Position numbers and translations under genes: made by a program
The notes under the pieces: model-generated
Database searches by the model: none
Seen by the model: the letters and a program-made list of their open reading frames with translations, nothing else
Told to the model about the DNA's origin: nothing
Shown here: one piece after another, positions 12,368-14,198 of the stretch
How the letters are laid out: each line of letters starts with the position of its first letter
How positions within the stretch are numbered: the stretch's first letter is position 1
Source of the DNA: Escherichia phage EF2-1
Sequence record: PQ571290
Length of the DNA stretch: 42,599 nt
Reading direction: 5' to 3' (one strand)

Positions 12368-13837
12368 ATGTTAACTATGAACGGTCAGAATCAGGGTGTT
12401 AAGACAAAACACCGGGAATGGCTGCATCACTTCGATAAATGGCAGAAGGTGCGCCACGCGCTGGAAGGCGACCTTATCCGCTATCTGCGCAACGTCGGAA
12501 AGAACGAGCCGGACCCTAAATATGCAGCCCAGCGCCAGGAAGAATACGAGAACGGCGCTATCTGCTACAACTTCACAAAACGCACCCTGGCAGGGATGGT
12601 CGGCAGTGTCATGCGCAAAGACCCTGAGCAGATTATCCCGCCTGAACTTGAGTACCTGTTACGTAACGCCGATGGTTCAGGTGTCGGGCTGTGGCAGCAC
12701 GCGCAGGATACGCTGATGGAGATTGACTCGGTAGGCCGTGGTGGGTTGCTGGTGGATGCGCCGGAGACCGCCGCGGCAACGGCGGCAGAACAGAACGCGG
12801 GATTATTAAACCCTGTCATCGCGTTCTATACCGCGGAGAACATCATCAACTGGCGACTGACCCGTATCGGTTCGGTTAACCGTGTGACTATGGTCGTGCT
12901 GCGCGAGGTGTGGGAATACTCAGAAAAGGGCACAGAGTTCGAAACAAAGTTCGGTGAACAATATCGCGTCCTTGACCTGATTGAAGGCCGCTACCGCCAG
13001 CGTATTTACCGATTCGATGCCGAGGGTGGCGCTCAGGGTGAGGTTATTGAGATATTCCCGGAACTTGGCGAACAATTGCGCGGCAAAATCCCGTTCACGT
13101 TTATTGGGGCAAGCAACAACGATGCGACCATCGACGACGCGCCTTTACTGCCGTTGGCCGAGCTTAATATCGGACATTTCCGCAACAGTGCAGACAATGA
13201 GGAATCCAGCTTCGTTGTAGGCCAGCCTACTCTGTTCATCGCCCCTGGCGAGAACATGAGCATGGAACAGTGGAAAGAAGCCAACCCTCACGGCGTGCGC
13301 ATGGGGTCGCGTTCGGGCCATAACATCGGTTACGGCGGCAATGCATTTCTTGTTCAGGCAGGAGAGAACAACCTCGCCAAACAGAATATGCTGGATAAAG
13401 AGAATCAGGCCATTCAGATTGGCGCGCAGCTTATCACCCCGACGCAGCAAATCACCGCCGAATCCGCCCGCCTGCAACGTGGCGCGGATACGTCTGTTAT
13501 GGCGACAATCGCACGTAACGTAAGTATGGCGTATACCGATGCATTGCGCTGGGTAGCGGCGATGCTAGGGTTGCGCGAAGACACAGAGATTGAATTCAAA
13601 CTGAACATGGAGTTCTTCCTGCAACCGATGACAGCTCAGGACCGCGCTCAGTGGATGGCGGACATTAACGCAGGCCTGCTACCAGCTACTGCTTACTACG
13701 CCGCGTTGCGTAAGGCTGGCGTAACCGACTGGACCGATGAGGATATTCAGAACGCTATCGAGGATGCGCCGCTGCCGTTGGGGGCCATTACTCAGGTAGC
13801 GGGGGAGATTCCGCAGTCGGCGCAGCAACAAGAGTAA
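12368..13837 (+). CDS. portal protein
   Basis: 489 aa; position between terminase and head-morphogenesis gene; AGAGGA RBS. Confidence 0.75.
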   Translation: MLTMNGQNQGVKTKHREWLHHFDKWQKVRHALEGDLIRYLRNVGKNEPDPKYAAQRQEEYENGAICYNFTKRTLAGMVGSVMRKDPEQIIPPELEYLLRNADGSGVGLWQHAQDTLMEIDSVGRGGLLVDAPETAAATAAEQNAGLLNPVIAFYTAENIINWRLTRIGSVNRVTMVVLREVWEYSEKGTEFETKFGEQYRVLDLIEGRYRQRIYRFDAEGGAQGEVIEIFPELGEQLRGKIPFTFIGASNNDATIDDAPLLPLAELNIGHFRNSADNEESSFVVGQPTLFIAPGENMSMEQWKEANPHGVRMGSRSGHNIGYGGNAFLVQAGENNLAKQNMLDKENQAIQIGAQLITPTQQITAESARLQRGADTSVMATIARNVSMAYTDALRWVAAMLGLREDTEIEFKLNMEFFLQPMTAQDRAQWMADINAGLLPATAYYAALRKAGVTDWTDEDIQNAIEDAPLPLGAITQVAGEIPQSAQQQE

Positions 13838-13867
13838 AACTAAGGCCCCGTAACGGGGCCTTAGTTT
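13837..13867. terminator. bidirectional hairpin terminator
   Basis: perfect 14-bp stem AAAACTAAGGCCCCG-taa-CGGGGCCTTAGTTTT between convergent portal gene and ORF 13867..14151. Confidence 0.6.
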
Positions 13868-14151
13868 TATTTCTTTCCTAATGCTTTCTTGATTGCTTTG
13901 TTCGCCAGATTTAATGGGTGGTCTTCGTGACAATCATCAGAAGATACCGCACAAACATCCTCGACGTAATCGCGAAGCTGGCGGAGAGCTTCAAGTAACT
14001 CAGGTGCCGAGGCGATAAGTTTTGCGTTAGCCAATTTTACTGAGTCCTTTTCCCGCATACTCATCACCTCAGCCACATAAACGTCACCCGCCCAGATAGC
14101 CGTTCCGCGATTAGCCCATGCGCCGTCTGTACCTTTAAATTTGTGTGCCAT
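13867..14151 (-). CDS. hypothetical protein encoded antisense within the packaging/head module
   Basis: 94 aa; AGGAG RBS; minus-strand TATAAT about 30 nt upstream of ATG; bounded by bidirectional terminator. Confidence 0.5.
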   Translation of the reverse strand: MAHKFKGTDGAWANRGTAIWAGDVYVAEVMSMREKDSVKLANAKLIASAPELLEALRQLRDYVEDVCAVSSDDCHEDHPLNLANKAIKKALGKK

Positions 14152-14170
14152 TTTTCATCTCCTGTTTAAG

Positions 14171-14198
14171 TTAACTGAATAGTACCCTATTATATTGG
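14171..14198. promoter_or_regulatory. divergent promoter/operator element (palindrome TGAATAG-N4-CTATTAT)
   Basis: plus strand TATATT at 14191-14196 toward gene 14252; minus strand TATAAT (revcomp of 14189-14194) toward gene 13867..14151; near-identical copy at 25694-25718. Confidence 0.55.

Follow-up and report, generated by a model that had tools for sequence, protein, structure and literature searches.

A moron-like antisense cassette in an accessory hotspot between the portal and head-morphogenesis genes of Escherichia phage EF2-1

Between the portal gene and the head-morphogenesis gene (MuF) of Escherichia phage EF2-1 (record PQ571290; the whole stretch analyzed, 42,599 nucleotides, is called the window below) lies a gene for a 94-amino-acid (aa) protein on the opposite strand, starting from ATG (13867..14151, minus strand). 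The locus is an ordinary moron-like cassette in an accessory hotspot, unsurprising in kind to a phage genomicist. Our reading of it as a whole, to which we assign a probability of about 0.7, is that of a moron-type transcription unit in a portal|MuF hotspot, with a sigma-70 promoter element that would also hold the operator of a helix-turn-helix (HTH) protein, and with cargo directed early or in mid-infection at the host or at competitors. The window is that of a Kagunavirus-type siphophage: its segment 13500-14600 matches 254 phage records, the closest being the Kagunavirus isolates LM08P1, PDP21P8 and vB_Eco_K-02 (K-02) at 88-89% nucleotide identity.

A genuine gene in an optional position

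A preliminary description of this DNA, made from the sequence alone, had placed here an antisense accessory gene with an AGGAG ribosome-binding site (RBS), and both parts of that proposal hold up. The Shine-Dalgarno sequence AGGAG (14159..14163, minus strand) lies 7 nt upstream of the ATG, and the gene is absent from about 90% of the relatives that have the same portal and MuF. The open reading frame (ORF) is a genuine gene under purifying selection: relative to its K-02 orthologue dN/dS is 0.19 (dS 0.36), and 19 of the 32 nucleotide differences fall at third codon positions. Its base composition differs from that of its neighbors, with a GC content of 0.474 versus 0.553 for the portal gene and 0.545 for MuF. 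Upstream on the plus strand are the genes for the large terminase (TerL, 11105-12355) and the portal protein (DUF4055/phrog_145, 12368-13837), and the true start of MuF (Phage_Mu_F/phrog_241) is the ATG at 14252.

We compared 46 Kagunavirus portal-to-MuF loci: forty came from IMG/VR, and the window and annotated phage records supplied the other six. About 27 of these loci have an empty slot and 19 a filled one, which holds the 94-aa gene in three cases and other cargo in 16; of the 254 related phage records, three span the whole query. At least 12 differing cargo sets, all on the minus strand, occupy the 19 filled slots: besides the 94-aa gene, they comprise a 173-aa phrog_3007 protein (3 loci), a 217-220-aa KilA-N protein annotated as 'amidase' (3 loci), a 250-aa N6_N4 DNA methylase, a 244-aa phrog_887 queuine-tRNA-ribosyltransferase-like (DpdA-like) protein together with a Vut_1 (YhhQ-type) transporter, and seven small uncharacterized proteins. 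The preliminary description had proposed looking for relatives that lack the ORF in an otherwise identical intergenic region. Most close relatives do lack it, but their intergenic region is not identical: they carry either a different 'empty' allele or other cargo behind an identical promoter flank. The empty allele is conserved (L005 1551-1619 and 26 further loci), about 84 nt long, and consists of a short hairpin, GCCCCGAAAGGGGC, followed by a degenerate promoter/palindrome motif, TTATAGTATGCTATTAAC; its MuF leader and RBS are unlike those of the occupied allele. As judged from these comparisons, the portal|MuF gap is a recombination hotspot and the 94-aa gene is dispensable and swappable. 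Jerseyvirus jersey also has an antisense gene, for a 216-aa protein, between portal and MuF, which makes the arrangement an old one within Guernseyvirinae.

Several features of the alternative cargo and of the records stand apart from this argument. The 173-aa protein bears inconsistent public names, 'DNA polymerase III sliding clamp' and 'RusA-like Holliday junction resolvase' (L002/L011, OM272052.1; L003, OR594180.1), and for the former there are only weak clamp-domain matches (E=0.006 in Pfam, 2e-4 in NCBIfam). The KilA-N cargo (L004 at ~2250-2276, L102 and L124) lacks the AATAG motif described below and has its own perfect palindrome with 11-bp arms upstream, AAATTCTACAT-TCAA-ATGTAGAATTT in L004 versus AAATGGTATAT-ATAG-ATATACCATTT in L124. 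Because both arms differ in concert, and the N-terminal region of the protein differs too, this pattern suggests that the KilA-N protein is autoregulatory. Finally, vB_EcoM_SHAK7693 is filed as Autographiviridae/Kayfunavirus in the public record, and its locus is collinear with Kagunavirus.

Conserved flanks and a second slot

On its left the cassette is bounded by a hairpin that overlaps the stop codons of both the portal gene and the 94-aa ORF. A terminator with a 14-bp stem had been described at this place; the hairpin does exist, with T-runs at both sides (TTTTATTT on the plus strand, TTTTACTCTT on the minus strand) as expected for a Rho-independent bidirectional terminator, but the stem has 16 pairs (13835..13869, both strands), 8 of them GC, around a 3-nt loop. 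By calculation its two strands have free energies of -29.7 (plus) and -27.9 kcal/mol (minus), and corresponding portal-proximal hairpins are present in every occupied slot of the relatives.

The right flank (14152..14251) comprises the cargo leader, the promoter/palindrome element and the MuF leader. Behind 10 cargo types it is near-invariant, from the CTCCTGTTTAAGTTAAC leader through TGAATAGTACCCTATTATATTGGTGTCTGCAAATATTATTTTTATGCGTTACACTGG...ACAGGAGGGC up to the MuF ATG, and in the relatives the CTCCTGTTTAAG leader is kept ahead of differing cargo genes. Between the window and K-02 the flank is 100% identical from CTCCTG to the MuF ATG, with the adjacent MuF coding DNA at about 87%.

A second accessory slot (15757-16098, 342 nt), empty in the window, separates the Hoc-like gene from the spanin genes. 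In most other loci (L096-L134) it holds minus-strand cargo and one copy of the palindrome. This cargo includes orthologues about 90% identical to the 94-aa protein (L128 and L134, also L092 and L108) as well as the 173-aa protein, 90-100% identical to its copies in the first slot. Since the same cargo is found in both slots, the cassette evidently moves between them, and its position beside head genes would be without functional meaning.

A repeated promoter element with a putative operator

Within the right flank is a 23-bp repeat, TGAATAGTACCCTATTATATTGG (14176..14198), with an exact second copy at 25696-25718 and a third, with two mismatches, at 4453-4475 (minus strand), where zero copies are expected (100 shuffles). 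The second copy belongs to a sister element (25696..25730, 35 nt with 91% identity) that separates the reverse-strand cassette 23103-25670 from the plus-strand tail genes, in keeping with the recurrence ahead of that cassette already noted in the preliminary description. Inside the repeat lies the palindrome AATAG-TACC-CTATT (14178..14191), our putative operator. The pattern AATAG-N4-CTATT, with its 5-bp arms, occurs seven times in the window (at 850, 4460, 6051, 14178, 25698, 37507 and 41061) versus 0.05 expected, and it ranks first among all palindromes with 5-bp arms and spacers of 2-6 bp, the next being terminator stems with at most three copies.

All of these copies lie directly upstream of genes, and they fall into two classes. 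Class I consists of near-consensus sigma-70 promoters, TTGAC(A/G/T)-17-TATAGT, whose spacer is taken up by the palindrome and which lead to replication-side genes. These are predicted on the minus strand at 850..863 (TTGACA-17-TATAGT, between the divergent genes 556-813, minus strand, and 938-1153, plus strand), at 37507..37520 (TTGACG-17-TATAGT) and at 41061..41074 (TTGACT-17-TATAGT). In class II, TTGCA(C/G)-17-TACTAT, a perfect or near-perfect TATAAT is contained within the spacer. Two of these predicted promoters, both TTGCAC-17-TACTAT on the plus strand, belong to the rightward small-gene operon (4460..4473, at its start, and 6051..6064), the copy at 14178 points toward the 94-aa gene, and that at 25698 points toward the reverse cassette 25670-23103.

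These counts revise the earlier picture, in which a 28-bp element present twice, with the palindrome TGAATAG-N4-CTATTAT flanked by TATAAT and TATATT, suggested one shared regulator for both accessory insertions and the adjacent late operons. The hexamers are indeed found on both strands, but the symmetric core is only AATAG-N4-CTATT, the outer bases being asymmetric. With seven copies rather than two, some of them at the strong early-type promoters 850, 37507 and 41061 and others at 4460 and 6051, the element is not an operator private to these insertions and operons.

For the cargo, consensus matches offer two minus-strand promoters: TTGCAG (complement of 14202-14207)-17-TACTAT (complement of 14179-14184), or a perfect TATAAT (complement of 14189-14194) without a -35 hexamer. 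On the plus strand the -10 candidates TATTAT (14188-14193) and TATATT (14191-14196) could permit re-initiation toward MuF. The accompanying -35 sequence is poor (AAGTTA or TTTAAG), while at the sister site 25688 it is moderate (GTTACA-17-TATATT). Rightward initiation from the element into MuF is thus possible but not required, because relatives with an empty slot express MuF without it, and the proposed control of the adjacent late operon is unproven.

We favor the view that the palindrome is a shared operator, bound by a dimer of the protein encoded at 938..1153 (plus strand). This is a 71-aa XRE/Cro-type HTH_3 protein (E=1e-12), already named as a candidate regulator in the preliminary description, and its gene is divergent from and adjoins palindrome site 850. 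Besides the position of that gene, our preference rests on the invariance of the CTATT arm, on the location of the class I palindrome within the spacer, on conservation in Jerseyvirus and on the early expression of an HTH gene. AATAG-N4-CTATT is the top palindrome in three genomes, including that of Jerseyvirus jersey (four orthologous promoter sites), and in a comparison of arm and spacer for information content the CTATT arm, which lies outside any hexamer, was invariant at all 18 exact sites in these genomes while the four central bases varied. Like XRE/Cro-type operators, the site has two-fold symmetry, half-site centers about 9-10 bp apart and recurrence at promoters. The HTH_3 protein is found in 502 phage records, with at least 94% identity within Kagunavirus and 51% in Jerseyvirus, where the recognition helix presumed for the homologue still begins with GVSQ. 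In the one Kagunavirus RNA-seq study, an HTH gene is the sole annotated member of a set of four early genes (PMC12645636).

It is possible, though we consider it unlikely, that the repeat is instead a symmetric, intrinsically bidirectional sigma-70 promoter with no dedicated regulator, the AATAG/CTATT symmetry arising incidentally from -10-like hexamers that overlap and from an initial transcribed sequence that is conserved. The portion of PMC10268837 that summarizes Warman et al. (2021) gives reciprocal -11A/-7T pairing with divergent starts 7-25 bp apart (typically 18 bp) as the commonest layout of bidirectional promoters in enterobacteria. At 14178 the heptamer TATTATA supplies a minus-strand TATAAT and a plus-strand TATTAT, with -11A and -7T reciprocally paired, and the start sites predicted from the paired hexamers are 18 bp apart, matching that layout as far as the summary describes it. 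One palindrome arm overlaps TATAAT, and the position of every copy directly upstream of genes would suit a promoter equally. Three observations argue the other way. The CTATT arm serves neither promoter direction, yet stays constant as the spacer changes; the class I palindrome occupies a -35/-10 spacer, the sequence of which is not read by RNA polymerase; and the palindrome is conserved across genera alongside the XRE HTH gene.

A second small DNA-binding protein, HTH_17/MerR-like and 84 aa long, is encoded in the early leftward operon (3700-3954, minus strand) and is an alternative candidate regulator. We also considered an ArgR box (TGAAT-N4-ATTCA) and rejected it because the spacing here is TGAAT-N8-ATTAT.

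A member of a very large phage protein family

Homology searches and structure prediction, which the preliminary description had called for, yielded a family and a model of the fold but no characterized relative. The 94-aa protein matches the phrog_1273 profile over its full length (E=4.2e-17, residues 3-93) and has 135 homologues at E<=1e-3; all 120 homologues listed, with identities from 94% down to 45%, are precomputed as PF27050 (Phage_P22_Y8K6). By these matches it is a member of PF27050/phrog_1273, a very large uncharacterized family: a profile search of 1.84 billion cluster representatives returned 22,118 at E<=1e-3 and 229 at E<=1e-10. Membership gives no mechanism for the protein. Nearly all members are stand-alone proteins of 90-110 aa with occasional tandem duplications, and the longer or tandem members examined contained no additional Pfam domain. 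Among distant members, P0219, P0197 and P0222 are such duplications, with two TPGPW...NARLIAAAPELLEAL units per chain, and P0213 has a 165-residue N-terminal extension with no Pfam match.

The family alignment begins with a conserved FKGTxGPW, continues through a hypervariable stretch of about 15-60 residues and ends in a highly conserved C-terminal half, ANAxLIAAAPELLEALRQLRDYVEDV...HP...A..I.KALG. Across 33 diverse members the invariant columns are F5, G7, W12, A49, P50, E51, L52, E54, A55, A83, I87 and K89. The 94-aa protein has the signature residues of the family, namely FKGxxGxW, the A-P-E-L-x-E-A helix and the C-terminal HP...A..I.KALG. With the family alignment as input, AlphaFold2 predicts a beta-hairpin followed by three helices (mean pLDDT 84.7). 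We also considered a Cys/His metal site in VCAVSSDDCHEDHP and ruled it out, only H-P being conserved across the family.

The two halves of the gene have different relationships. Codons ~43-94 share 87-91% of their nucleotides with homologues from two sources, slot 2 of another Kagunavirus and Skate/swi2-like siphophages (the conserved 3′ half is about 90% identical to L092-L095), and the 5′ half is not alignable to those homologues. From these alignments, the 94-aa gene is itself recombinant, with a 3′ module in common with Skatevirus-like phages. This module has no match in 5,426 complete E. coli genomes.

Searches of the 94-aa protein against Pfam (a release without the PF27050 model), NCBIfam, PADLOC and PDB sequences gave no matches, and a search of BFVD returned only uncharacterized phage proteins. 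We found no homology to a characterized anti-defense inhibitor or defense component, and literature full text held nothing relevant for PF27050, phrog_1273, Y8K6 or the APELLEAL signature.

What the protein may do

Elsewhere, lambdoid phages have homologues in their PL operons, placed between KilR and Gam-RecT or Erf-SSB; in another phage type, one follows the primase-polymerase near a methylase, and in Skate/swi2-like siphophages the homologue heads an operon with a ParB-like gene. In 80 viral contigs with 150 neighbors, the recurring ones were RecT, YopX, Sipho_Gp157, DNA methylases, AAA_24, PAPS reductase, NinX, N peptide, MazG, Gam and SSB. This neighborhood places the 94-aa protein, as far as gene context can, among early accessory genes and not structural ones.

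Kagunaviruses are reportedly highly sensitive to restriction-modification systems (bioRxiv 10.1101/2024.09.12.612763), and anti-restriction cargo should therefore be useful to them. We think that the cargo class is mainly one of host-range or counter-defense genes because of this sensitivity, because slot-mates include the methylase and the DpdA-like/YhhQ-like pair, and because of the enzymes encoded behind the sister element. For the 94-aa protein itself, a small binding protein of the host-range/counter-defense kind is most likely, on evidence that is weak.

Less probable, and rather doubtful, is an accessory role in DNA recombination, replication or repair alongside functions of the Gam/Erf/RecT type. 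It would fit the lambdoid position of the homologues and the enrichment of their viral-contig neighbors for RecT, Sipho_Gp157, AAA_24, SSB and YqaJ, and one alternative cargo of the slot is the clamp-like or 'RusA-like' phrog_3007 protein. The family has no constant partner, however, since 198 neighbors fall into 149 homology clusters; the Kagunavirus gene is predicted to be transcribed alone and lies far from the replication module; and domain and sequence searches found no nucleic-acid-binding or enzymatic signature in the protein. Nor does an early PL-type neighborhood discriminate between the two roles, as such regions also house most known anti-defense genes.

A role in head assembly or packaging, with the gene co-regulated with portal and MuF, is highly improbable: its location between those genes is the only point in its favor, whereas most relatives with the same portal and MuF do without it, it lies on the opposite strand with a predicted promoter and terminator of its own, and it has near-identical orthologues in the second slot and homologues in early operons of unrelated phages. 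Weakest of all is the proposal that the ORF is incidental, the functional product being an antisense or non-coding transcript or the region a decaying insertion, which the small, optional unit convergent with the portal gene might suggest but which is hard to reconcile with the low dN/dS, a strong RBS at ideal spacing, a very large protein family with conserved residues and a confident AlphaFold model.

A working model for the cassette

In the model that we prefer, the moron-type unit would have three parts: a terminator after the portal stop, one minus-strand cargo gene, and a conserved flank of about 90 bp with leader, RBS and standard promoter element. Host sigma-70 RNA polymerase would start at the class II element and proceed leftward through a leader of about 30 nt into the 94-aa gene, and perhaps weakly rightward into MuF. 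The hairpin would stop the cargo transcript before it ran antisense into the portal gene, and would also attenuate portal transcripts arriving from the opposite direction. An HTH protein on the palindrome would occlude both -10 regions, which would place the cassette under a switch common to all seven promoters. Late read-through from the terminase and portal genes would be antisense to the cargo mRNA and could, we infer, help to silence the cargo.

New cargo would be acquired by homologous recombination in the conserved flanks, both among co-infecting Kagunaviruses and between the two slots. In the early or middle phase of infection the cargo protein would bind a factor of the host or of a competitor, in counter-defense or host take-over, without acting as an enzyme; its N-terminal hairpin may be the variable specificity part, and it would have no role in head assembly.

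A number of points weigh against this reading. The case for counter-defense is one of guilt by association only, through slot-mates and early-operon neighbors, and many of the slot-mates are as uncharacterized as the 94-aa protein, for which our searches detected no similarity to a characterized protein or fold. For promoter direction and timing the only basis is the match to consensus sequences, and the published RNA-seq, which distinguishes just three broad temporal classes and reports neither strands nor start sites, lacks the resolution to place the 94-aa gene (PMC12645636). As for the operator, the position of the palindrome relative to the -10 and -35 hexamers differs between the two promoter classes, and the TATAAT hexamer itself accounts in part for one arm (TAATAG), which leaves a dedicated operator unproven.

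The model could be extended further, in a form that we regard as a long shot. PF27050 proteins might be widespread modular binders in which a three-helix scaffold carries a hypervariable N-terminal hairpin, swapped by recombination to retarget the protein to host immunity or competitor proteins; the two Kagunavirus slots would then be a counter-defense 'cassette exchange' system under one XRE regulator acting through AATAG-N4-CTATT.

Relation to known systems

Phage 'morons', in the concept of Hendrix and Juhala, are extra genes with their own promoter and terminator inserted between the conserved genes of a module. The cassette resembles them in lying between two core head genes with a promoter-like element and a factor-independent terminator (both predicted here from sequence), in being present in some genomes and absent from close collinear relatives, and in having a GC content below that of its neighbors. 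It differs in that classic morons come from temperate lambdoid phages and are expressed from the prophage, whereas this phage group is virulent; in that the promoter is the phage's own repeated regulatory element and not a foreign one; and in that the slot acts like a landing pad, its flanks conserved and its cargo drawn from many alternatives. Compared with other PF27050/phrog_1273 members, the 94-aa protein has the same length and the same conserved residues, but its gene stands alone, antisense within a structural module, and does not belong to an early operon.

The palindrome motif is not new, having already been published as a PHIRE motif for a Kagunavirus relative: fBC-Eco01 was reported to have seven PHIRE 'phage promoters' with the consensus tgAATAGTa-ccTATTat-T, assigned to a phage RNA polymerase (PMC9825357). 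The motif is the same, with seven copies per genome at equivalent intergenic positions, but the sequences hold sigma-70-type -35/-10 hexamers around the palindrome, and the copy upstream of that phage's slot-1 cargo is unannotated in the record. We ruled out a phage-RNA-polymerase promoter, as the fBC-Eco01 genome has no annotated RNA polymerase. The published 'phage promoter1' of this phage coincides with the portal terminator hairpin.

With symmetric bidirectional sigma-70 promoters, insofar as the cited summary describes them, the element has in common overlapping opposite-strand -10 hexamers, the predicted start separation and divergent genes on either side; it differs in that the alternative TTGCAG-17-TACTAT is equally plausible here and that the extra conserved palindrome arm is not explained by symmetry. 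The likeness to Cro/CI-type (XRE) repressor-operator systems is a small HTH_3 gene beside a 14-bp two-fold symmetric site that overlaps the -10 or the spacer at several promoters, the difference being that this is a virulent phage without a lysogeny module, having seven dispersed single putative operators and not tripartite OR/OL.

Additional features near the slots and the sister element

Scans of the window with Rfam models and for tRNAs gave no matches. The second slot contains, on the plus strand between the Hoc-like and spanin genes, a candidate small RNA (15834-16082), with a strong sigma-70-like promoter, TTGACT-17-TGcTAAGCT (~15848-15876), about 190 nt with no ORF, and an intrinsic terminator (16055-16074). 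The candidate is also conserved in L092, another Kagunavirus; its fold z-score is only -1.9, and no Rfam model matches it. Just upstream of it the palindrome arms occur in the reverse arrangement (CTATTCGAATAG).

The reverse cassette behind the sister element (23103-25670, minus strand) encodes a 108-aa protein of no recognized type, a 378-aa calcineurin-like metallophosphatase, a 162-aa PNKP-type HAD phosphatase and a 184-aa P-loop (AAA_18-like) protein. The set recalls polynucleotide kinase/phosphatase RNA-repair enzymes, and a bidirectional terminator follows at 23079-23098.

Implications

The seven published 'phage-RNA-polymerase promoters' of a Kagunavirus relative are better read as sigma-70 promoters with a shared, putative operator. 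Kagunaviruses are candidates for phage therapy and synthetic biology, and the two slots, with their conserved promoter and terminator flanks, provide a ready landing pad for engineered payloads, while the cargo found in them makes a short list of candidate host-range and counter-defense genes. Because PF27050 is among the larger uncharacterized phage families, any phenotype of the 94-aa protein would annotate many genes.

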